DNA from: Ruminococcus albus 7 = DSM 20455
GTDB lineage: Bacteria; Bacillota; Clostridia; Oscillospirales; Ruminococcaceae
Direction of reading: 5' to 3'
DNA: 32,000 nucleotides
Assembly: GCF_000179635.2 (NCBI RefSeq)
Contig: NC_014824.1
Span: forward strand, 270,001 to 302,000
Each line of letters begins with the position of its first letter. Positions within the stretch are counted from its first letter, which is position 1. The notes beneath the pieces were generated by a model. The model did no database searches and was not told where the DNA came from. It worked only from the letters and a program-made list of their open reading frames with translations. Below are positions 590 to 32,000 of this stretch, piece after piece. The translations under genes and the position numbers were made by a program.

Positions 590-2126
590 ACCTCAATACC
601 TGTTTCATCGGATATAAGCACGACATCAATCATCGCTGCCGCTATATCGTGCTTTTCCTGAACCGTCAGTTTATCCCACTGCTTCATAGGTTCTTCCAAA
701 GGCTTTGTGTCGATTGCTTTACGCTTACGGCACATAGTCTGCAATTTTTTATCAAGCTTCGATTTCTGTTCGTGCAGGGCGCTCACACGCTTCTGAATGT
801 AGTCAAAAAGTACGCTGTCCGCATCAGCGAGCTTTTCCATGAGCTTCTGGATCTCACCGTCAATGTGAATGATCTCTGTCTTGATACTCTCCGTTTCGGT
901 GTCGGGCTTGCTGTCCTCACGCTTTGCGATTTTGAGCTGTTCGATACGCTTCTGCATTTCTTCCAGCACAGCGTCCTCGACCTGTTTCGGCTTTAACTGA
1001 ATGGGCGGAGTGGGACAGCCGTTCAGCGTGAACTTGCCGTAGTCGATGAAGCGGTGATACACACACCTTTTCTGTTCGCACAGTGATTGAAGTGCATCGC
1101 ATAGCCGCAGCAGGCACATTTCACCATACCCACAAGCCAAGAGTTCATAGCCTTGCCGTTTGTCGGGAACTTGCTCTGGTGCGACTTCCTGTCCTGCACT
1201 CTCAGCCACGTTTCCGCAGGCACAAGCCCCTCATGGTATGCTACCTTGACGAAATGCGTATCATCAAGCCCAGCGTGGATAAACAAGCCGTGAATGCCGT
1301 CATAGGCTTCAATATCGTCAAGCATTTCATATCCTTTGGAAAGAAAATAGCGGTAGACCTCTTTGTCAGCCCTCACATACAGCGGATTTTCAAGGATACG
1401 GCTCAGGTGCGACCTGTCAAGATTGGAAATGCCTGTTTTCGTGCGTGGTGTCGGTCTTGAAGCATTGATACCGTTCTCCGTCATGTAGCGGATAATATCG
1501 GTCAGAGAGTTTTCGGGATGCTGATACAGGTCATACGCCACACGCACCGCCTCCGCATTCTCCGAGGGAACAAGCACCGAGCCTGTTTTGCCGTTAATAG
1601 TCCGTCTTTCGGGAGTGTAGCCGAACTGAACTTTACCGCCCTGATAGAATCCTGTTTCTCTTGCCTTAGTCTGGAAAGCATCGGCTACACGGGCAGCGAT
1701 AGTCTCACGCTCAAACTCTGCGAAGTTTAGCAGATTGTTTCGCATCATACGCCCCTCTTTTGTCTCCGTATTGAACGGCTCGGAGAGGGAGTAGACGGTC
1801 ACACCATAGCGGTCAAGCTCGTCCGTGATATTCAAGTATTCCCTCATATTTCTACTGAAACGGTCATACTTTTTCACGATAATTCTGCTGATAAGCCCCT
1901 CACGGGCATCGCTCATCATCTGCATAAATGCGGGACGGTGCATCACATCTTTGCCCGACTTGCTGTCATCGCAGTAGATACGATAGTCGCATTCGCCCAC
2001 AAATCTGATACACTCCTCCTTCTGTGCGGATATGGACAGCGAATTGTTGCCCTTATCCTTGTCACTAACGGATCGACGAAAGTAAATTGCCGTGATACCG
2101 TCGTTTGTTTTAGTTGATTTTCTCAT
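574..2126 (-). pseudogene. Large serine recombinase (resolvase domain + recombinase domain + zinc ribbon + coiled-coil/DUF4368-like C-terminus), split by a frameshift near nt ~1080-1100
   Basis: The N-terminal ORF 1023-2126 has AIYFRRSVSD (catalytic Ser context) and a KCACCGYAM zinc ribbon. The C-terminal ORF 574-1209 continues the family pattern (EQKRCVYHRF..., long coiled coil) in another frame. The two ORFs overlap by 187 nt. Confidence 0.85.
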
Positions 2127-2188
2127 TGTTGACCTCCAATTGCATCAGCATAATCGTAACTGTAATTCTTTTTCGGCAGATTGCCAGA

Positions 2189-2377
2189 TCATTCAGTTTC
2201 TTTCTTTGTTCCGTTGCGGCGCATTGCACCGAGGAAAATATCGTACATCTTGTTGATCTTCTGCTGTCTGATTGTTTCGGGAACATCATCAGGGTAAGAA
2301 ACTCTAACCTTGATACCCTCATCAGACACATAGGGGGCTGCCTTCTCTCTTTTCTCTACGGCAGATGTTGTATTCAA
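2189..2377 (-). CDS. Small 62-aa protein upstream of the recombinase. Its size and position recall TnpW-like transposon proteins (tentative)
   Basis: An ORF co-oriented with and immediately upstream of the recombinase. It contains a VRVSYPDDVPETIRQQKI motif. No domain could be verified. Confidence 0.4.
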   Translation of the reverse strand: MNTTSAVEKREKAAPYVSDEGIKVRVSYPDDVPETIRQQKINKMYDIFLGAMRRNGTKKETE

Positions 2378-2648
2378 ATTTTAGTCCTTTCCGACAGCTT
2401 TCTCTTTGTCGCTGTCTGTCATTTCAGGTTTGGTTATCAGCATCATCGCTTCTTTCAGCGATAGAAGTCGTAGCCATATCATCACCACCATTCTGAAATT
2501 TTAGTCGAGCCGAACTACTCAGCCCATACTAAAATTATAGCGCACTTTCGGGGTGAAAGTCTATTCGCAGTGCGCATGAAGCCCCGTGCGCCATAAAACT
2601 TTTCTTATCGTGAAAATGTTATGTGAAATTTTGAATTGGGCATAAAAA

Positions 2649-2673
2649 ATGCAGAGCCGGTGTTGCTCTGCAT
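2649..2673 (-). terminator. Hairpin terminator ATGCAGAGC-N7-GCTCTGCAT
   Basis: A 9-bp perfect stem followed by a T-run on the minus strand, downstream of the 2722-3165 gene. Confidence 0.6.
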
Positions 2674-2721
2674 GAAGATGGTATTCGGTTTTATTATCTG
2701 AATCGTACGCTTAGATTATTC

Positions 2722-3165
2722 TTAGTCCATACGGCGAAAACGATATAATTGCAAACTTGTAAATTCATCTTTGTTATGCTCCTTATACACGCCAATTTGA
2801 CGGAGCAAGTAGTTGATTACACCATTGCCTTGCATTGGTTCTATCGCTATGCTGCCATTCTCAAATAAAACACCTGTTTGTGTTCCATATCCACCAAAAT
2901 AATCTGTTTCAATATACATGATCTGTGCGTCTTTAGATTCCTGCAACAAAAAGCTAATGACAGAATCAGATAGATAATTGAACTGAGGATATTTATGAGT
3001 ATCAGCAGTATCAAACAACTCCTCAATATCGTCAAATAAGCTATCATTGAGAAATGACATTCCATAACCCTGCGGAAGTATATTTTTCTCTGCATACACC
3101 CAATGATCTGAAATGTTTTGAATAACATTCTCTTTTGCAATAATAGCTCTTATCATATGTCCCAT
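2722..3165 (-). CDS. Hypothetical protein, 147 aa
   Basis: An AGGGAGAG RBS lies 6 nt before the ATG at 3165 (MGHMIRAII...). The TTG start at 3204 in the ORF track is unlikely. No motif was recognised. Confidence 0.6.
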   Translation of the reverse strand: MGHMIRAIIAKENVIQNISDHWVYAEKNILPQGYGMSFLNDSLFDDIEELFDTADTHKYPQFNYLSDSVISFLLQESKDAQIMYIETDYFGGYGTQTGVLFENGSIAIEPMQGNGVINYLLRQIGVYKEHNKDEFTSLQLYRFRRMD

Positions 3166-3710
3166 GAAAACTCTCCCTGTTTTTACGAGCACGCCGACCT
3201 CCAACTCTTTCCCCTAAATTATAACACACCGCCCCCAAAAATGCAATCCCATTTCCGAAAAATCCACCCTCCAGAATCACCGTCATCATCAACAGAAATC
3301 CCATGTTGAAACTATGCAGGAGGGAGAATCATCATGAACAAACTGTAAACTTTTCAGAAAATTATGCCAGAATCCTCAAATTTCACGGTAGATAAGTGAA
3401 GGGGTATTTTCATGGGCGATCAGGCAGGGCAGAAATTTGAATGTAACGATAAGTGTATCGACATTCAAAATCGGCTCAGGGAGAGCTGAACGGAAGGTTT
3501 CACCAGACTGCCGCCCACCCAGCATCATAACTGCGCCGAAGCCCAGTAAAATACTCTCAGAGCCGTGCGAATACAGAGAAAAGTCGCATAGCTCGTACAT
3601 GAACTTTGTTCATGTATATCACAGCAGGAGCGTGAAAAAGTGCCGAAGAACGGCGAAAAACAAGTGAGGGCGTGGAACGCCCGATCAATTTTCACAAGCA
3701 CGGTATGTCG

Positions 3711-3797
3711 TATTACGATTATGAAAAATCGTAAACCACATACGGCTTGTTAGGGGAAAATTCCCCTAAGACCCCTGAGAGGTCGGCACAGCCGACC
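3711..3797 (+). other. Cluster of short perfect inverted repeats upstream of mobC (candidate oriT region)
   Basis: The repeats are TTACGATT-N6-AATCGTAA (3711-3732), GGGGAA-AA-TTCCCC (3753-3766) and GGTCGGC-ACA-GCCGACC (3781-3797). oriT commonly lies upstream of mobC and relaxase genes. The nic site was not identified. Confidence 0.25.
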
Positions 3798-3818
3798 GAG
3801 ATACAGAAAGGAGACACA

Positions 3819-4394
3819 ATGTCAATATTCAAAAAATCGGGCGAGGTAGATTTCACTGAACCGCCCGAAACCAGCGAGGGCGAATCACCACCGCAGGACA
3901 CCGAGCCGAGCGAGGTACGCAAGCACCTGATTACTTTCAGAGTGAACGACATGGAACTTGAAGCAATCAACCGCCGATATGCGGAAACATCGTTCAAAAG
4001 CCGTGGCGATTTTTGCAGGTATTCTGCACTCATCGTGATGAATGTTGAGGAAGATACCGAGGACATAAAGCAGATAGCGAGGTACATATCGTCTATCTCC
4101 AATTCGTTCAATCAGGTAGCCCACCGTGTCAATAAAGGCGGAAAACTTTACGATGAAGATATTTCCGATATGAAAGCGAGATTAGAGGAAGTTTGGCGAT
4201 TACTCGTATCCATACGATCCACACGGGAACATACGGTGCAATTGCTTATATCTGCAACCCGGACAAAACCGCAGACGGCAAATATGTTGTTAGCAACCTG
4301 TGCGTATCTTCTCCATGTGGAGCATCAGAACAGTTCAAAAATATCCGAGAGTGTGTCGGCACAGGACGAAGCCGAAGCGAGTGTCAGCACATAA
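3819..4394 (+). CDS. mobC: MobC-type relaxosome accessory protein. Its 3' end overlaps the relaxase frame by ~200 nt, so the native stop is probably lost
   Basis: An AAAGGAG RBS precedes the ATG at 3819. The motif HLITFRVNDMELEAINRRYAETSFKSRGDFCRYSAL...SNSFNQVAHRVN fits the bacterial mobilisation protein MobC pattern. Confidence 0.7.
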   Translation: MSIFKKSGEVDFTEPPETSEGESPPQDTEPSEVRKHLITFRVNDMELEAINRRYAETSFKSRGDFCRYSALIVMNVEEDTEDIKQIARYISSISNSFNQVAHRVNKGGKLYDEDISDMKARLEEVWRLLVSIRSTREHTVQLLISATRTKPQTANMLLATCAYLLHVEHQNSSKISESVSAQDEAEASVST

Positions 4395-5094
4395 TACAAT
4401 CGTTTGCTCCGGGGGAAGTCACTCCCGAACGTGCTTTGCTTATCGGGCAGGAACTTTGCAAGGCACTTTTCAATGACAAGTATCAGTATGTGCTTGCCGT
4501 CCATTGCGACCATGAACATATCCACAATCACATCATCGTGAACAATGTGAACTTCTACACGGGCAAGACCTTTGAAACCGAGCATAATCAGGGCAAAATT
4601 CCCGACCGAGCGTGGAGCAAACTCCGCACGATTTCGGACGAACTATGCAGGAAACACGGACTTTCTATCATCGAAAATCCGCATCTTTCAAAGGGTAAAA
4701 GCCATTGGGAGTGGGAGCTTGACCAACAGAATTTGTCGTGGAAAGAACAGCTTAAACGAGCCATTGACGAGGTTATCAAGGTCAGTGAGGACTTTGAGGA
4801 TTTCCTTGCGAAATGTGCCGATTTCGGAATACTTGTGGACTACAATCCCGACCATAAAATCGACCTGAAATTTATGCTTGCCGAGCAGAAAGAACGCAAT
4901 TCGAGGGCGAAATTCACAAGAGCGAAAACGCCCGAACAGATTACGCACAGCAGAGTGCGGAGCGTAAAGCCCTGAAGAAAGAAGCGGACAGACTTTCAAG
5001 GCTTGCGCAGCAGAAGCGTGACAGTCAGAGAACGCTTGACCGATATATGCAGAACGAACAGGCTGCCAAGAGAAAGAAAGGTCAGCTTGAATAA
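4193..5094 (+). pseudogene. MobA/VirD2-family relaxase that is degraded: TTG start, internal deletion with frame change near ~4940-4960, and the extreme C-terminus retained in another frame up to 5094
   Basis: The relaxase core HCDHEHIHNHIIVNNV (histidine triad) is present. The ORF stops at 4975 after ~260 aa. The downstream frame encodes a ...KALKKEADRLSRLAQQKRDSQ... tail ending TAA at 5092-5094. Confidence 0.75.
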
Positions 5095-5109
5095 AGAGAG
5101 GAAGATTTT

Positions 5110-5621
5110 ATGAGTAGAATAGGTTATATCCGTGTTTCCACGGAACATCAGGAGACAGCGAGACAGCAGGAGATCATGGACGGCTATCAGGTAGACCGCA
5201 TCTTCTCCGAGAAGATTTCGGGAGCGAACAAAGACCGCCCACAGCTCAGGGCTATGCTTGACTATGTGCGTGAAGGCGATACGCTTTACATCGAAAGTAT
5301 CAGCCGTTTAGGACGCTCCACAAAGGATTTGCTGAACATCATTGACACTCTCACCGAAAAGGGTGTCACTCTCATCAGCCACAAGGAAAACATCGACAAC
5401 GTGAGGGCATCGAGATCGCTAAGGCTCAGGGTAAGTACGCAGGGCGTAAACCCATTGAAATCGACTGGACGAGGTTCGGTCAGCTTTATGGGGAATGGAA
5501 GTCAAAGAGCATCACGGGCAGGGACTTTATGCGGAGAATGGGCTTGTCGGCTAACACCTTTTACCGCCGTGTGCGTGAGTATGAAATCCGTCACGGCATT
5601 GCCGAGCCTACCTCTGCTTGA
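5110..5621 (+). pseudogene. Small serine recombinase (resolvase/invertase) with an internal deletion and frameshift at ~5400
   Basis: The N-terminus MSRIGYIRVSTEHQ...RLGRSTKDLL is intact. After ...HKENIDN the family sequence resumes in a different frame (REGIEIAKAQGKYAGRKPIEIDW...FYRRVREYE, an HTH) and ends TGA at 5619-5621. About 40 codons are missing. Confidence 0.8.
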
Positions 5622-5699
5622 CAGCCCCCTCAGACGAACGGAAAAGTCCATCAGAGCCGTTCGAGCCTGCGGAGCGGAAAACTAACCGCCTGAAAAGAA

Positions 5700-10440: not shown

Positions 10441-10458
10441 TGTGTCACGCGTGACACA
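10441..10458. promoter_or_regulatory. 18-bp perfect palindrome TGTGTCACGCGTGACACA, copy 1 (candidate operator)
   Basis: The sequence is its own reverse complement. A second copy at 19472-19489 has about 50 nt of homologous downstream context. Confidence 0.5.
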
Positions 10459-19471: not shown

Positions 19472-19489
19472 TGTGTCACGCGTGACACA
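19472..19489. promoter_or_regulatory. 18-bp palindrome TGTGTCACGCGTGACACA, copy 2 (extends to 22 bp, 19470-19491)
   Basis: It is identical to 10441-10458 and sits ~55 nt upstream of the tnpB promoter -10. Confidence 0.5.
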
Positions 19490-23204: not shown

Positions 23205-23273
23205 AAAGCTTTTTCATTTTCTCCTTTTTAAGCCTCTGATACAATACATAACTATTGTAAAAGAGGCTTGTAT

Positions 23274-23328
23274 GCAGACGTTATACGGAATTTGTGAGTT
23301 CGAATCTCACCGTCTGCGCGTTTTTTTT
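23274..23328 (+). terminator. tRNA-like minihelix (7-bp acceptor stem plus T arm) followed by T8, acting as the hup terminator
   Basis: The layout is GCAGACG, 13 nt, GTGAG-TTCGAAT-CTCAC, CGTCTGC, G, then CGTTTTTTTT. There are no D or anticodon arms. Confidence 0.5.
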
Positions 23329-23825
23329 GAGGATTTTCAAAAAAACTTCTTAAGGTGTCAGACTTGTTGTTGAAACGCTCAGAATCACACAAAACTTCCC
23401 GTCACGCTCATTCCTTATCTTCTCACCTGCGATATATGCTGCACTTGCTACGCAACTGCCCCACTCGTTCGCGTGACCATTTTGACGTTGAAATGATATA
23501 TTGCTGTTATGCGACTTCTTTCGGTTTGGATTAATCTCAATACATACAAATGTTCGATTCTGTTTTATGTTATAGCACGAATATTCGCACTGTCAAGAGC
23601 TTATCGAAAATTTGTTCTTTGTTGCTACTGAGTGGGCATATAGCTAAATTCAAATATCATCTTAACACTAAGGTGCATTTTAGTGCGTTTTTTCAAGTTT
23701 CTCATGCTCAGAGGTTCGTATGGTTAATTGCATCTATCATGAAAACATAGAAAAAATACGTTATTAAATGAAATACAGACACAAATTAAGTTTTCTTTTG
23801 CATTGTAATTTAATAGATTATTAAC

Positions 23826-27548: not shown

Positions 27549-27558
27549 TCAACAACAT

Positions 27559-27592
27559 AAGCGTCTCACTTTTATGTGAGGCGTTTTTTATT
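27559..27592 (+). terminator. Module A terminator
   Basis: An AGCGTCTCAC-TTTTAT-GTGAGGCGTT stem followed by a T-run. It is homologous to the terminators at 28809 and 31708. Confidence 0.55.
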
Positions 27593-27637
27593 CGGGCCTT
27601 TTTCATGAAATTATAACGTCTGATATCATTCTAAATA

Positions 27638-27706
27638 TTCATCTATAATATTTACAGAGTTTATTTGTTGATAACTGGAGTAATCAAATTTTTTGATTAA
27701 GATGAA
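27638..27706 (+). repeat. Module A imperfect hairpin (69 nt) with TATAAT in the 5' arm and apical AACTGGAGTA
   Basis: The outer stem pairs TTCATCT+TAAT with ATTA+AGATGAA, and the inner stem pairs ATTTG with CAAAT. The linear sequence is homologous to modules B-E. Confidence 0.5.
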
Positions 27707-27762
27707 CATCAAGAAATAAGCTTCAAGAATTACTATATATAATATTTTTGGAGGTAATAATT

Positions 27763-28551
27763 ATGAGTCACTATTCATTGATCGCAATAGGATTTGAAAA
27801 TGAGGAAGATCTGGAGAATATGATGTCTATTTACGACGAATCCCGAAAAGTCGCTCCTCATATCGACATGACGAAAGAAAAAATTTACGAAAATGCACAA
27901 GCTTTCTATCAGGAAAAATGCAAGCTTATTGAAGCATATGAAAGAAATCCTGAAAAAGCAGTTGCTGAGCATGGAGAAAGAGCTAAGGAATTTTATGAAA
28001 ACCGTCATATCGATGGGTATTTGGGTTGTTACGAAAATCCTGAAGATTATTATAAACAGATTATATCGCATCGAAAAACAGACAGAAATGGAAATGTATT
28101 AACGATGTCTAATTCTGAAGCCAAGTGGGATTATTATGATGTAGAAAAAGAAACAACGATCGGGAAAATAAAAGAAGAGTATAGAAAAGCACGAGAGAAG
28201 TTTGATTCGTCCAGGCTCGAATTTATATGGAATGTAGTGGTTAATGGCATCAAACCTGAAAAAATGGATCTTGATCATTTCATGTTGCTGTGGGGCGTTC
28301 CTTCTAAAGAAGAAATGTTGAAGCTGTATAAAAGTAAAGAAGAGTATATTTCTTTTCACAGAGATACTTTCTGCCCTTCTTACAGTGTGCTCTTGCCTGA
28401 AGGCTGGTTTGAACCGGGAACAGTAGGAAGCTTTGGTTTAAGTACTGCGAGTCCCGCGGAGGAGCACGAATTTCGTAAAAATTATTATAAGGAATTCATT
28501 GAACCCTATGACGATGATACAAATGTTTTTGTGATTGATTGTCACATTTAA
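27763..28551 (+). CDS. Hypothetical 262-aa protein
   Basis: A GGAGG RBS lies 7 nt before the ATG at 27763. The protein is acidic and helical, with a SEAKWDYYDV segment. Its function is unknown. Confidence 0.75.
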   Translation: MSHYSLIAIGFENEEDLENMMSIYDESRKVAPHIDMTKEKIYENAQAFYQEKCKLIEAYERNPEKAVAEHGERAKEFYENRHIDGYLGCYENPEDYYKQIISHRKTDRNGNVLTMSNSEAKWDYYDVEKETTIGKIKEEYRKAREKFDSSRLEFIWNVVVNGIKPEKMDLDHFMLLWGVPSKEEMLKLYKSKEEYISFHRDTFCPSYSVLLPEGWFEPGTVGSFGLSTASPAEEHEFRKNYYKEFIEPYDDDTNVFVIDCHI

Positions 28552-28575
28552 GACGAATCAAATAAAGGAGATATA

Positions 28576-28787
28576 GTTATAGCCAATAAATTTTCTGACA
28601 TAGATCTTTGCTTCGCAAAGATTGATGATATAGTAGAAAGAAAATGATCTTTCACGGTGAACTATGGAGCAGTCAGGAAATAGATGAGTTTTATAGCGAA
28701 CGAGACTTTGAGACAGAATTGAGTCGTATCACAATATTTGATAAAACTATTTTTGATTTTCAGACAATGAAATTTTTCCTAAAATGA
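28576..28787 (+). pseudogene. Possible small gene disrupted at an A-run (28641-28644), with no ATG at its RBS
   Basis: After an AAAGGAG RBS, one frame stops at 28645-28647. The next frame continues from 28644 (MIFHGELWSSQEIDEFYSERDF...) to 28787. One extra A would fuse the two frames. Confidence 0.3.
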
Positions 28788-28808
28788 ATGTTCATTGAAT
28801 CAACAAAG

Positions 28809-28838
28809 CGCTTCTCTCTTTTGGGGAGGAGCGTTTTT
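28809..28838 (+). terminator. Module B terminator
   Basis: A CGCTTCTCTC-TTTTG-GGGAGGAGCG stem followed by T5. Confidence 0.55.
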
Positions 28839-28855
28839 ACTTGCTATAATAATCT

Positions 28856-28924
28856 GTTATAATACTATTAGATTCATTCTTTGATAATCGGAGTTATTAA
28901 AAATGGATCTAATTTAATTATAAC
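28856..28924 (+). repeat. Module B imperfect hairpin (69 nt), the best-paired copy
   Basis: The 5' arm is GTTATAAT-ACT-ATTAGAT-T-CATT-C-TTT and the 3' arm is AAA-A-AATG-G-ATCTAAT-TTA-ATTATAAC. About 21-22 of 26 positions pair. The apical stem is ATAA-TCGGAG-TTAT. The extended -10 TGTTATAAT lies in the 5' arm. Confidence 0.6.
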
Positions 28925-28937
28925 GGAGGAATAAACA

Positions 28938-29222
28938 ATGAACTACAAAAACGGGAAATATATTCTTGATGACGGACACATCGTTCCGTCTTATGAAGCG
29001 ATACAGATCTATAACGTAGTGGAATTCAATTCACGCAAAGAAGAAGTGTATGATATGTACCTAAGCGTCAACAAAGACAAAAAGATCCCGGATGATTTTT
29101 TTGAATCGGTCAAATTGAGAGAACTTACTGATGATTATATCGATGCTATAACAAACGAAAATGATAATTTATCCGACATTCTATATAATGTCGTAAAATC
29201 AGGATGCAAAAAGGAGATATAA
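28938..29222 (+). CDS. Hypothetical 94-aa protein
   Basis: It has an ACGGAGGAATAAACA-ATG RBS and is flanked by its own modules. Confidence 0.7.
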   Translation: MNYKNGKYILDDGHIVPSYEAIQIYNVVEFNSRKEEVYDMYLSVNKDKKIPDDFFESVKLRELTDDYIDAITNENDNLSDILYNVVKSGCKKEI

Positions 29223-29302
29223 AATAATGGATAGGTATTTCATCTCTCACAATTATCGAGTTATAAATTATGATTAAAAAATACAATTAGATCCAATCTT
29301 AA

Positions 29303-29331
29303 CGGCTCTGCTTTATTGCAGGGCTGTTTTT
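29303..29331 (+). terminator. Module C terminator
   Basis: A CGGCTCTGC-TTTATT-GCAGGGCTG stem followed by T5. Confidence 0.5.
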
Positions 29332-29348
29332 ATCGGATCAAAAATTCA

Positions 29349-29417
29349 AATATAATAATTACAGAATTCATTTTGATGACTTGGAGTGTCAGAAAAAATT
29401 GAATTACTATTTATATT
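29349..29417 (+). repeat. Module C imperfect hairpin (69 nt)
   Basis: AATATAA...AATTCA-TTTT pairs with AAAAAATTGAATT...TTATATT. The apical sequence is GAC-TTGGAGT-GTC. Confidence 0.5.
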
Positions 29418-29431
29418 ACGGAGGAATAAAT

Positions 29432-30517
29432 ATGACACTGATACAGAAAGTGATCAGGCTGTTAAGTATAAATCATGATGGTCTGACGACGAAAGAATTA
29501 TACGAAAAATTACCGGAATATTCTCCTACCGGCATAAGAGGAGTTATTTCCAGATATTTGAGAACAAACGAAACTCCAGCTTTTGAAAGAAAAGAAGCTG
29601 GAGTCTTTGTCTTGATAGAAGTTATAAAGGCAGAAAAGAACGAAGAAGGTATAAGTCTCAGTTATAGAGCATCATATGATACTTTGGAAAATGGCAGTGT
29701 TGATCTCTTTTATAAAGATGTATTTGTAGAAAACGAAATGATAGAAGAGGGCGTATACGAACAAAGAAGAGCATTTGCAGATGAACAGGACTTCTTTAAT
29801 GCAAAGATAAACTTGCAGGCAGTGCTGGCTCATGCTGATGCTAAGACTATACTGAACAAACTTAAAACAGAGTCCTTTGATATGATACTTACCGACCCGC
29901 CTTACAGGGTAATTTCAGGAGGGACAGGCGGTAAAAACGCACCCAAAGGAATGCTGAGCAAAAATGACGGAAAGATATTCGATAACAACGACATACAGTT
30001 TGATGAATATATTCCCGAATGTTACAGGGTACTTAAACCTGACAGACAGGCATACTTCTTCACAAATTTTCTTAATCTTCAGCAGCTTATTGAAGCAGTT
30101 CAGAGGTCAGGATTTAAGGTTCATAACCTTTTGGTCTGGCTGAAAAATAATGCCACACCCAACAGATGGTACATGAAAAACTGTGAGAATGTATTGTTCT
30201 GCTACAAAGGAAAAGCAAAGGCTATTTCAAACTGCGGAAGTAAGACCGTACATCAGTTTGATAACATAAAGGGACCAAAACTCCATGAGACCGAAAAACC
30301 CGTTGAACTGCTTAAAATGTATATAGAAAATTCCACTGAAGAAGGAGAATGGATCCTTGACCCGTTTGCGGGCTCAGGTTCGACAATGGCGGCATCGCTT
30401 CTTCTGAATAGAAAGGTATTTACCTGTGAGATAGATAAAAAGTATCTTAATGTAATAAAAACCAGAGCAATATCTATCCTGAAAAGCGGAGAAGATGATA
30501 GGAACTTAGTAGTTTGA
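29432..30517 (+). CDS. Orphan beta-class DNA methyltransferase (N6-adenine or N4-cytosine) with an N-terminal winged-helix-like domain
   Basis: Motif IV (LTDPPYRV) precedes motif I (LDPFAGSGST). The ATG at 29432 follows an ACGGAGGA RBS. No restriction endonuclease gene is adjacent. Confidence 0.9.
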   Translation: MTLIQKVIRLLSINHDGLTTKELYEKLPEYSPTGIRGVISRYLRTNETPAFERKEAGVFVLIEVIKAEKNEEGISLSYRASYDTLENGSVDLFYKDVFVENEMIEEGVYEQRRAFADEQDFFNAKINLQAVLAHADAKTILNKLKTESFDMILTDPPYRVISGGTGGKNAPKGMLSKNDGKIFDNNDIQFDEYIPECYRVLKPDRQAYFFTNFLNLQQLIEAVQRSGFKVHNLLVWLKNNATPNRWYMKNCENVLFCYKGKAKAISNCGSKTVHQFDNIKGPKLHETEKPVELLKMYIENSTEEGEWILDPFAGSGSTMAASLLLNRKVFTCEIDKKYLNVIKTRAISILKSGEDDRNLVV

Positions 30518-30566
30518 AAAAATCAGTTTTGCGTCAGCGGTGCTGCTTTTAATAAGATAAATATTC

Positions 30567-30631
30567 AATTATAATATTAACAGTATCAGTTTTTGGATAC
30601 TTGGAGTAAAAAAAGAGTTACTATAATAATT
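30567..30631 (+). repeat. Module D imperfect hairpin (65 nt)
   Basis: AATTATAATAT-TAAC...TTTTT pairs with AAAAA...GTTA-CTATAATAATT. The apical sequence is TAC-TTGGA-GTA. Confidence 0.45.
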
Positions 30632-30650
30632 AAAACAGGAGGAAGTAAAA

Positions 30651-31361
30651 ATGGGACTAGATATGTATTTGTACAAGGTATCTACACCGGAAATAAATGA
30701 GGGCGAAATTATAAATGATATACACGAAGATCCAAGATGCTCCGGTGTTAAATTTATCAACACAGATGCAGAAAATGTTCTTTGCGACACAATTAAGAAA
30801 ATTGCTGTAAAATGTATTATAACAGAACGATACTATAATATGAGAAAAATCATAACGGATTATCTAATGAATTTTGATGTTTTAGAAGAAAAAGCCTCTG
30901 AATACGCAGAAAAGTTCTATCAGGGCGGATCTTCCTATAGTTGCACAAAACAATCTTTTAGTCTGTATTGTGATGATAATGAAGAAGTTAAAAGAATTCT
31001 TAATAGCATCGGTAATTCAGGCGAAACGATTTTAGAAACGACACCAAGTATGACAACGAGTATCAGGTATGAAAAAGATTATGATAGAATAGTTGTTAGT
31101 TTTACTGTGAATGAAACTAATATGCACTATGAAGGTAAATACCTCATCACAAAGAATAATAAAAAATATGCTGTAATAATGAAAGAAGTCGATTATCAGC
31201 GGAAAGGACTGAATGATACCGGATGGTCGTTGCTCCCGGAAAACTGTTGTTACTGCGATGATAAAGACCTTATCTGTGAAATGACTGAAGACGGCGGACT
31301 ATCAGAGTCCTTTATGGAAAATTGGATCGACAATGAAACAGTATTCTGGCCATGGTGGTAG
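30651..31361 (+). CDS. Hypothetical 236-aa protein
   Basis: It has an AGGAGGAAG RBS and starts MGLDMYLYKV. No domain was recognised. Confidence 0.75.
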   Translation: MGLDMYLYKVSTPEINEGEIINDIHEDPRCSGVKFINTDAENVLCDTIKKIAVKCIITERYYNMRKIITDYLMNFDVLEEKASEYAEKFYQGGSSYSCTKQSFSLYCDDNEEVKRILNSIGNSGETILETTPSMTTSIRYEKDYDRIVVSFTVNETNMHYEGKYLITKNNKKYAVIMKEVDYQRKGLNDTGWSLLPENCCYCDDKDLICEMTEDGGLSESFMENWIDNETVFWPWW

Positions 31362-31374
31362 AAGGAGATAAACA

Positions 31375-31686
31375 ATGAATGATGTAAAAGAAGAAAAACT
31401 GGAATACTATCAATGCCTGAAACTTCTAGAATACCTCGTAGAGATCGGCTTGATACAGAAAAATCCCCAAATTCCGTCTGATATTCTCGTTTTTTGTGAG
31501 GGTAATGGAGAGGAATATCCTGAAGGATGGTATAGTGAAAATATTTTCGATGCAGCAAGAGATCTGGTCAATAAACCGGATGAACAGAGAATACTGCTTG
31601 ATGCCATCGAGGAAAAGGGATTTAAAAAGCCTGAACTTCCTAAATTTGAAACCGTAAGACTAGATGTAGAAAAATTCTTCAGCTAG
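31375..31686 (+). CDS. Hypothetical 103-aa protein
   Basis: It has a GAAGGAG RBS and lies 13 nt after the upstream stop, within the same cassette. Confidence 0.7.
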   Translation: MNDVKEEKLEYYQCLKLLEYLVEIGLIQKNPQIPSDILVFCEGNGEEYPEGWYSENIFDAARDLVNKPDEQRILLDAIEEKGFKKPELPKFETVRLDVEKFFS

Positions 31687-31707
31687 TATAGTAATTCATG
31701 ATTACAA

Positions 31708-31735
31708 AGCGTCTCTCTCAGGAGGACGCTTTTAT
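31708..31735 (+). terminator. Module E terminator
   Basis: An AGCGTCTCTC-TCA-GGAGGACGCT stem followed by TTTTAT. Confidence 0.5.
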
Positions 31736-31742
31736 CTTTGGG

Positions 31743-31844
31743 GAAATTCTAGTATAATTCAGGTATAGGATTTAATTGATAAACTGGAGGTCAGACAAGT
31801 TGTTGAGATCAAATAATAAAGGTAAAAATCTATGACATAATTTC
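31743..31844 (+). repeat. Module E hairpin-like region (102 nt, expanded loop, weakest pairing)
   Basis: Its ends are GAAATT and AATTTC. It shares the linear motif TATAAT...TTGATAAACTGGAGGTCAG with modules A-D. Confidence 0.35.
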
Positions 31845-31861
31845 TAAACGGAGGATGAAAA

Positions 31862-32000
31862 ATGAAAATATTTACTGCTTATGATATAGACTGGGATGTT
31901 GATATTAATGAAATCTATGAAGCATTCGAAAAAATGACTATTTACGATGCAGCAAAAGAATTATGTATCACTGCAGATACGTATGCTGATATGAAAACGG
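31862..32000 (+). CDS. Hypothetical protein, 5' partial (runs off the window)
   Basis: It has an ACGGAGGATG RBS and an ATG at 31862. The frame stays open to the window end (MKIFTAYDIDWDVDINEIYEAFEKM...). Confidence 0.6.
   Translation, partial: MKIFTAYDIDWDVDINEIYEAFEKMTIYDAAKELCITADTYADMKT

Follow-up and report, generated by a model that had tools for sequence, protein, structure and literature searches.

What are the homologous intergenic sequences that separate unrelated, co-oriented small genes on a replicon of Ruminococcus albus 7? The stretch of DNA analyzed here (the window, 32,000 nt) belongs to a replicon of 420,706 bp, which we take to be the size of the megaplasmid pRUMAL01, and four proteins encoded in the window exactly match those of R. 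albus 7 (ADU23991.1, ADU23992.1, ParM/StbA ADU23974.1, and ADU23979.1). Between positions 27553 and 31861, the window contains five such modules, A to E, all of them intergenic and on the + strand. A first-pass annotation had proposed two explanations: promoters that are active on single-stranded DNA (ssDNA) of a conjugative element, or leader RNAs with two sites for a translational repressor of the CsrA type. We favor a different reading, to which we assign a probability of roughly 55%, namely that the modules are self-contained, portable, and insulated expression cassettes with a 5' leader that serves as an mRNA stabilizer or as a decoy Shine-Dalgarno (SD) sequence.

In the proposed mechanism, an intrinsic terminator would shield each gene from upstream transcription, and a promoter with a perfect TATAAT box, but without a good −35 element (the corresponding position lies in the T-tract of the terminator), would drive its expression. 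Transcription is predicted to start at a conserved YAG, 7 nt past the −10 box. Within its first 40–70 nt, the mRNA would then form a 5'-terminal stem-loop that presents an SD-like YGGAG(U/G) 21–22 nt from the 5' end, followed by an AU-rich linker and a strong SD. The hairpin and the decoy SD may guard the mRNA from 5'-end-dependent decay or tune ribosome loading, and the shared modules could act as homology patches for gene swapping, in the manner of the PeSL cassettes discussed below. We infer the start site, the activity of a promoter that lacks a good −35, and the influence on mRNA stability.

The existence of five homologous, co-oriented modules between unrelated genes, already recognized in the first-pass annotation, was borne out by the sequence and by a profile hidden Markov model (HMM) of the module core, which matched A–E with E-values from 6e-8 to 1.5e-5. 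Outside of A–E, the model gave no match in the window better than E = 0.15, and thus the module is not a general intergenic repeat of this window. Each module begins with the intrinsic terminator, which is followed by A(A/T)TCnnnTATAAT, 5–7 bases with YAG at their end, a variable stretch of about 19 nt that closes with TTGATAAYY, and GGAG(T/G); a further variable part leads to the strong SD and the start codon. The conserved stretch of TATAAT plus about 27 nt turned out to be even tighter than originally claimed, with GGAG located 26–27 nt after TATAAT in 17 of 17 distinct copies. The flanking parts are less uniform than had been proposed. The terminator type AAGCG..TCTC...GAGG.GCG is present in A, B, and E, and is replaced by other terminators in C and D, that of D being weak. 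Likewise, the ribosome-binding site ACGGAGGAAUAAA, described as conserved, is found in B and C, and modules A, D, and E simply have strong SDs.

The family comprises at least 17 distinct copies (A–F, H1–H3, K, L, M1, M2, and M8–M11), which were found in R. albus 7, on two contigs of R. albus 8 (L009 and L010), and on two metagenome contigs (L151 and L162; rumen metagenome); all copies found are co-oriented, and as a rule they precede ORFans. A contig with the same sequence as the window, L001, reaches 2.4 kb past the window end and contains a sixth module, F, whose strong hairpin has a wholly different stem sequence. Module F is followed by a 178-aa gene and then by a terminator and promoter without a hairpin. 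As mapped from gene coordinates, the sequence stops at the same base, L001:10934, about 2.4 kb past the window end, in three independent assemblies (L001, L003, and L006), which points to the edge of a repeat immediately past the array. Further modules of R. albus 8 precede a Lar-like gene, a dCMP deaminase gene, the gene of a zinc-finger protein, and a 73-aa gene. An array on L162 contains 11 modules and 35 co-oriented small genes in a 21-kb piece of a 158-kb contig. Diverged copies lie beside a methyltransferase with 61% identity to that of the window (L037); with this exception, methyltransferase loci at 57–62% identity showed no clear modules.

Pattern scans and database searches added little to this family. 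A scan of metagenomes with the module pattern yielded one true locus, L151, the rest being dominated by an abundant human-gut sequence and a coding repeat. The 21 matches in viral contigs are apparently due to chance, most of them lying in apparent coding sequence and a few being ordinary promoter-SD pairs. Searches of Rfam gave a tRNA as the only match in the window above the gathering threshold and nothing over the module core or the hairpins at E-values up to 5; the match in the leader of module E (31788–31834) was at chance level (E = 2.2, 20.7 bits vs. a cut-off of 41.2 bits).

Leader RNAs that begin at the predicted 5' end, the A in the conserved YAG, were folded, and their stabilities were compared with those of dinucleotide shuffles. 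The z-scores were −4.2, −3.6, −1.8, −0.8, +1.1, and −5.9 for A–F, −2.3, −1.8, and −2.5 for H1–H3, +0.2 and −2.0 for M1 and M2, −3.3, +0.3, −2.2, and −1.0 for M8–M11, −0.2 for K, and −4.3 for L, resulting in a combined Stouffer z of −8.3 for the 17 leaders. In nearly all predicted folds, the hairpin begins 0–4 nt from the predicted 5' end. The stem sequences vary among the copies, yet every 5' arm has its best partner in the 3' arm of the same copy, with −7.8 kcal/mol for cognate vs. −4.9 kcal/mol for non-cognate arms (permutation p = 0.0013). By eye, the first base pair of the arms is A:U in the leader of the window methyltransferase (module C) and G:C in its R. albus 8 counterpart, H2. The sense strand is better folded than the antisense strand in 16 of the 17 copies; about half of this gap is compositional, and the remaining excess amounts to about 1.9 kcal/mol (p = 0.007). 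Taken together, according to these fold predictions, the conserved structure is a hairpin at the predicted mRNA start that is sense-biased and has co-evolving arms.

The GGAG, which had been placed in the hairpin loop from the outset, is indeed mostly unpaired at +21/+22 in the predicted folds, with a mean unpaired probability of at least 0.65 in 9 of 11 copies. A start codon does not follow it consistently (by eye, B and E could encode mini-ORFs, that is, open reading frames of 4 and 11 codons, respectively), and a leader peptide translated from the loop GGAG was rejected for this inconsistency. Use of the TTGATA motif as the −35 element of a second promoter was also rejected, because a −10 box is missing at the proper distance.

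Comparison with R. albus 8 supports the portable nature of the units, as the term cassette had implied: on two R. albus 8 contigs, modules of the family flank a 91%-identical methyltransferase gene in a different gene context. Along this alignment, identity to the window starts at about 40% on the left, rises to 62–65% in module C and to 80–98% in most of the methyltransferase gene, drops to 65–72% in module D, and returns to about 40% thereafter. The homology between the strains extends from one module across the methyltransferase to the next, and the flanks are unrelated. The two contigs also differ from each other, in that a unit of module K and a gene for a 231-aa zinc-finger protein (zf_Tbcl) is present in L010 (1790–2680) and missing from L009 (1790–1900). 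The junctions of this unit are two similar terminators with CTTCGG loops, and in L009, which lacks the unit, half of one terminator is fused to the next. Furthermore, H2 and H3 are nearly identical within one R. albus 8 genome, whereas their identity to the window counterpart is about 67%, which is below the value of about 75% for coding third positions. As judged from these sequence identities, the likeness of H2 and H3 points to exchange between modules.

This organization resembles the PeSL (promoter-early stem-loop) cassettes of T4-type phages, in which composite terminator/promoter/SD motifs precede ORFans and recombination occurs between the motifs (Arbiol et al. 2010, PMC2839356; Comeau et al. 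2014, PMC4122927). The resemblance is one of anatomy and behavior; sequence homology is not claimed. Both systems combine a repeated intergenic terminator stem-loop, a sigma-70-type promoter, and an SD in front of ORFs, with the caveat that the −35 is poor in most R. albus copies. In both, ORFans occupy a plastic region, related genomes differ with breakpoints at the motifs, and the overlap of stem-loop and −10 box seen in module B is also known from some PeSLs. In contrast to PeSLs, the R. albus modules reside on a megaplasmid of a Firmicutes species and not in a T4-like phage, T4-type early promoters find no counterpart because the replicon is a megaplasmid without phage matches, and the modules add a conserved 5'-UTR (untranslated region) hairpin with a GGAG at a fixed position, which is undescribed for PeSLs.

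For the leader itself, two known 5' mRNA stabilizers of Firmicutes offer themselves for comparison: the 5' stem-loop of the aprE leader (PMC11805744) and the STAB-SD of cry3A, which blocks RNase J1 (PMC4113751). The R. albus leaders would resemble them in having a stem-loop at the very 5' end (given the predicted start) and an SD-like sequence at a long distance ahead of the true start codon, without a consistent ORF start. However, the R. albus elements join both features, since the 5' hairpin has the GGAG in its loop; in addition, they recur at many genes of one replicon, and the GGAG represents only the 4-nt core of an SD. By analogy, and as judged from sequence and predicted folds, the R. 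albus leaders may have a similar stabilizing role.

Several observations weigh against portable cassettes with a stabilizing or decoy leader. All claims at the RNA level hinge on the predicted +1. In the window, a 9-of-12 promoter scan accepts A and B only, and most copies lack a recognizable −35, so that promoter activity is assumed because of the perfect −10 box. Four of the 17 leaders (E, M1, M9, and K) are no better folded than their shuffled versions. The loop GGAG is a weak SD, pairing to the anti-SD at −5.6 to −6.6 kcal/mol in 10 of 11 copies (the GGAGG of module E reaches −10.0 kcal/mol), whereas the true SDs pair at −8.2 to −11.1 kcal/mol. RNAalifold, applied to a MAFFT alignment, predicted no pairs, no common structure, and gave no position-by-position covariation statistic, because the paralogous stems sit in different registers. 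A covariance model, suggested as a check in the first-pass annotation, did not help either: built for the compact class, it recovered its own training copies only and was not used for covariation counts. Finally, the spacing of 26–27 nt, constant to ±1 nt, and the conserved UUGAUAAYYGGAG are not accounted for by a pure stabilizer. For this last reason, a shared regulator and a DNA operator were kept as alternatives.

A shared regulator, which we regard as a rather doubtful alternative, would be CsrA of the host, or else an RNA-binding protein or nuclease encoded by the plasmid, that contacts the GGA of the loop and the GGA of the SD and thereby switches the whole cassette set together. The R. 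albus leaders resemble dual-site CsrA leaders, such as the hag leader of B. subtilis, in having one GGA in a hairpin loop and a second one over the SD, 22–73 nt downstream, which is close to the 10–63 nt that CsrA can bridge between two sites; this part of the CsrA proposal stood. In addition, the GGAG is kept in sequence as well as in structure, is exposed in the loop, and persists in distant copies with wholly changed stems (F, L037, and M8), and its constant position suggests a reader. However, the CsrA consensus is RUACARGGAUGU, with A or G favored before GGA, whereas C or U precedes GGA in every R. albus copy examined, and the arrays contain no candidate regulator gene that we could find. 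The constant position could also reflect a double-stranded DNA operator, the box TTGATAAYYGGAG at +13 to +26, where, at each cassette promoter, a plasmid repressor would stand in the way of RNA polymerase. The sequence of the box is conserved, and its distance from the −10 box is 19–20 nt in 17 of 17 copies, a fixed spacing that is typical of operators and not demanded by a hairpin. Nevertheless, an operator is unlikely: the complement of the box is found at a variable downstream distance (loops of about 4 to 19 nt), which fits an RNA hairpin and not a dimer operator, G:U pairs are used on the sense strand, and the window contains two extra sites with at most 2 mismatches outside of the modules (shuffles give 1.2 matches in total). 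Very unlikely, in our judgment, is a role of the hairpins as processing or insulation sites for read-through RNA, cut by an RNase III-type or a GGAG-specific nuclease, such that only promoter-proximal transcripts are translated. The models for this would be the early region of T7 and RegB of T4, whose target is GGAG. Small early genes arranged in rows, with repeated promoters, terminators, or homologous hairpins between them, are known from the host-takeover module of the Bacillus phage SPO1 and from the RNase III sites of T7, and the R. albus array has a similar layout; however, those are phage contexts, and neither homology nor phage genes nor IMG/VR relatives were found for the array. In the read-through RNA, an extended fold pairs part of the SD in B and F, and the stem arms are about 20 nt long each, but the SD is sequestered in only 2–3 of 11 copies, and strong terminators already stand ahead of most modules.

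The proposal that these are hairpin promoters of the Frpo type, which work on the strand that a conjugative element transfers in single-stranded form and drive early anti-defense genes, appears highly improbable to us. In the published Frpo structures, a stem-loop pairs the −35, the −10, and the UP element with complementary regions and thereby mimics duplex DNA (PMC11541004). The layout of the array is superficially similar to published anti-defense islands with several Frpo-like elements (PMC11541004), with structured elements repeated upstream of co-oriented small genes, among them an orphan methyltransferase, PcfJ, PcfM, and Lar-like relatives. As ssDNA, the hairpins of 65–102 nt that had been drawn around the TATAAT box form roughly as proposed in A–D, where they are weak, and do not form in E (z for A–E: −2.0, −5.5, −1.6, −1.1, and +0.9 on the + strand, and −1.5, −3.2, −2.0, −1.8, and +1.0 on the − strand). 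Most of this signal stems from the inner hairpin downstream of the promoter. When the stability added by the segment from −12 to +6 was compared with that added by shuffled versions of this segment in 11 modules, module B alone showed a gain (z = −5.8, vs. −1.3 to +1.3 for the remaining ten), and an independent duplex test also found promoter-arm pairing above chance in B only. Thus, a −10 box within a stem, a central element of the proposal, is significant in one of 11 modules, B, in which the long hairpin that encloses it is significant on both strands. The −35 position (TTTTAT with a 17-nt spacer, part of the terminator T-tract) is outside of every stem, the template strand folds worse than the sense strand, the hairpins are short (40–70 nt) and weak as ssDNA (−3.4 to −11 kcal/mol), and no oriT, intact relaxase, or type IV secretion system was found in the window or in the 2.4 kb beyond it, where the first-pass annotation had suggested looking. 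Single-strand promoters of this kind (Frpo/ssi) were reportedly described by Masai and Arai in 1997 for the leading regions of conjugative plasmids; compared with these, the R. albus hairpins are far shorter, and the conserved structure sits downstream of the start and on the sense strand. The Frpo reading fails three features that define the element in the literature. A hairpin that contains a −10 box should not be called Frpo without checking whether the −35 is in the stem and on which strand the structure lies.

Other mobile or regulatory elements were likewise rejected. Miniature inverted-repeat transposable elements with terminal inverted repeats and attC sites fit module B only. An integron attC site is further contradicted by the failure to find a tyrosine integrase in the window and by the unmatched R''/L''-L'/R' core (RYYYAAC...GTTRRRY); by eye, only B has GTTATAA...TTATAAC, in reversed order. 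A leader attenuator was dismissed because the hairpins in the window have no U-tract behind them. A locus beside a 79%-identical methyltransferase (L158) does have one: there, a terminator-like hairpin of CTGGAG/CTCCGG is followed by a U-tract in the leader. This locus also contains two 22-nt direct repeats GGTTTTGGAGTAGTGTAAAAAT, 67 nt apart (33–54 and 100–121), and, after them, a perfect TTGACA-17-TATAAT promoter with its leader (140–225).

The coordinates of the modules and of the genes between them are given in Table 1. Except for the methyltransferase, no cargo gene had a match in Pfam or NCBIfam. The two genes highlighted in the first-pass annotation, the methyltransferase (PF01555) and the PcfJ remnant, were both recovered, the latter weakly (E = 7e-5, 23.1 bits, under the 25-bit cut-off).

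Table 1. Features of the module array of R. albus 7 (window coordinates; MFE, minimum free energy; z, relative to shuffled sequences).
Feature	Coordinates	Strand	Description
Module A terminator	27559..27592	+	AAGCGTCTCAC...GTGAGGCGTTT + T-run; 11-bp stem; directly after PcfJ-like remnant
Module A core	27632..27682	+	AAATATTCATC; TATAAT 27644-27649, YAG, predicted start A27656, GGAG 27677-27680; HMM E = 6.4e-8; promoter scan CTGATA-18-TATAAT
Module A 5'-terminal mRNA hairpin, long form (predicted)	27656..27724	+	GGAG in internal loop; RNA MFE −19.1 kcal/mol, z = −4.15, 0/200 shuffles as good
Cargo gene 1	27763..28551	+	262 aa, ORFan; SD GGAGG 27750-27754; weak phrog_10079 match
Module B terminator	28806..28839	+	AAGCGCTTCTCTC...GGGAGGAGCGTTTTT
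Module B core	28848..28895	+	TGtTATAAT (28858-28863), extended −10 (promoter scan), predicted start A28870, GGAG 28890-28893; HMM E = 2.7e-7
Module B 5'-terminal mRNA hairpin (predicted)	28870..28910	+	CGGA loop; RNA z = −3.59
Cargo gene 2	28938..29222	+	94 aa, ORFan
Module C terminator	29303..29331	+	GGCTCTGC...GCAGGGCTG + T-run; by eye like terminator of module L, R. albus 8
Module C core	29339..29388	+	TATAAT 29351-29356, predicted start A29363, GGAG 29383-29386; HMM E = 1.3e-5
Module C 5'-terminal mRNA hairpin (predicted)	29363..29408	+	UUGGAGU loop; RNA z = −1.75
Cargo gene 3	29432..30517	+	Orphan N6/N4 DNA methyltransferase, 361 aa, ADU23991.1; PF01555 E = 6.6e-31
Module D terminator, weak	30531..30549	+	5-bp stem
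Module D core	30558..30608	+	TATAAT 30570-30575, predicted start A30582, GGAG 30603-30606; HMM E = 1.2e-7; 75% identity to A over 57 nt
Module D leader, weak hairpin (predicted)	30582..30622	+	RNA z = −0.81
Cargo gene 4	30651..31361	+	236 aa, ORFan, ADU23992.1
Cargo gene 5	31375..31686	+	103 aa, ORFan; one transcription unit with gene 4, no module between
Module E terminator	31707..31733	+	AAGCGTCTCTCTC AGGAGGACGCTTTT
Module E core	31742..31790	+	TATAAT 31753-31758, predicted start A31765, GGAGG 31786-31790 in CUGGAGGUCAG; HMM E = 1.5e-5
Module E leader, no significant fold	31765..31834	+	RNA z = +1.09; ssDNA z = +0.9, +1.0
Cargo gene 6	31862..32000	+	112 aa, extends past window end; module F next, outside window
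Also encoded in the window			ParM-type partition gene, DUF4317, TnpB, dockerin protein, tRNA-Lys, HU

Module B contains, in addition to the hairpin listed in Table 1, a longer one (28853–28927) that encloses it and pairs the −10 box with the ACGGA of the SD; it is significant in B only (ssDNA z = −5.3 to −5.5). The CTGGAGGTCAGAC subtype of module E recurs in modules M9–M11 of L162. Within the array, a gap of 250 nt between the 262-aa gene and terminator B (28552–28805) contains an SD-like AAAGGAGA together with a single ORF of 47 aa; it may represent a decayed cassette gene. Codons 48–58 of the methyltransferase (29573–29604) form a 12-bp hairpin ACTCCAGC...GCTGGAGT with a U-rich tail, the 3' arm of which is a copy of the leader-loop motif CTGGAGT and the 5' arm its complement. 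The R. albus 8 version, ACTCCTGC...GCAGGAGT, has two synonymous changes with the pairing kept. This hairpin may be an intragenic attenuator or a partner of the leader loop.

Two further sequence elements were observed elsewhere in the window. A perfect 18-bp palindrome, TGTGTCACGCGTGACACA, occurs at 10441–10458 and 19472–19489 (0.02 occurrences expected by chance), before the ParM operon and before TnpB, and a −10-like box follows each copy at a distance of about 55–75 nt. With A in place of the central G, it is found upstream of the H1-type module at L009:1866–1881, L010:2610–2625, and L151:5758–5773, and, by eye, a variant also lies ahead of the H1-type module of L162. The palindrome is probably an operator for a plasmid regulator. 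After the HU gene and 400 nt past tRNA-Lys, the sequence at 23270–23330 (GCAGACG...GTGAGTTCGAATCTCAC-CGTCTGC, then a T-run) resembles a minihelix of a tRNA acceptor stem and T-arm; ARAGORN made no call here, and the element may simply be the HU terminator.

An apparently decayed mobilizable element at 1023–5685, which is small, unrelated to the array, and located 22 kb to its left, comprises two serine recombinases (the first of them on the − strand, the second a resolvase), a NikA/MobC-like gene, and a relaxase ORF of the MobA/VirD2 type; the relaxase-like ORF, the single one found, is short (260 aa). Comparison of the array region with plasmid and phage collections (megablast, blastn) gave no match, phage genes were not found near the array, and IMG/VR contained no relatives of three window proteins. 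A tblastn search of annotated collections with the methyltransferase returned distant, uninformative matches only.

A more far-reaching interpretation, which we put forward as a tentative and rather improbable one, is that the modules constitute an undescribed class of cis-regulatory RNAs that is specific to Ruminococcus megaplasmids. The 5'-terminal hairpin with YGGAG at +21/+22 would be read by a dedicated plasmid or host factor, dozens of ORFan cassettes of the anti-restriction type would form one establishment regulon, and the modules would double as recombinase-independent exchange sites.

If the reading of the modules as insulated, portable expression cassettes is correct, the R. albus megaplasmids would organize many ORFans, and with them methyltransferase, Lar-like, PcfM, and antitoxin-type genes, into expression units that are insulated and can be plugged in. 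The PeSL principle, that is, mobile regulatory cassettes that enable modular gene shuffling, would then extend from T4-type phages to a Gram-positive plasmid, and the conserved leader RNA would be one that is absent from Rfam. The modules would also provide strong terminator, promoter, stabilizing-leader, and SD parts for rumen Clostridia, which are genetically hard to manipulate.

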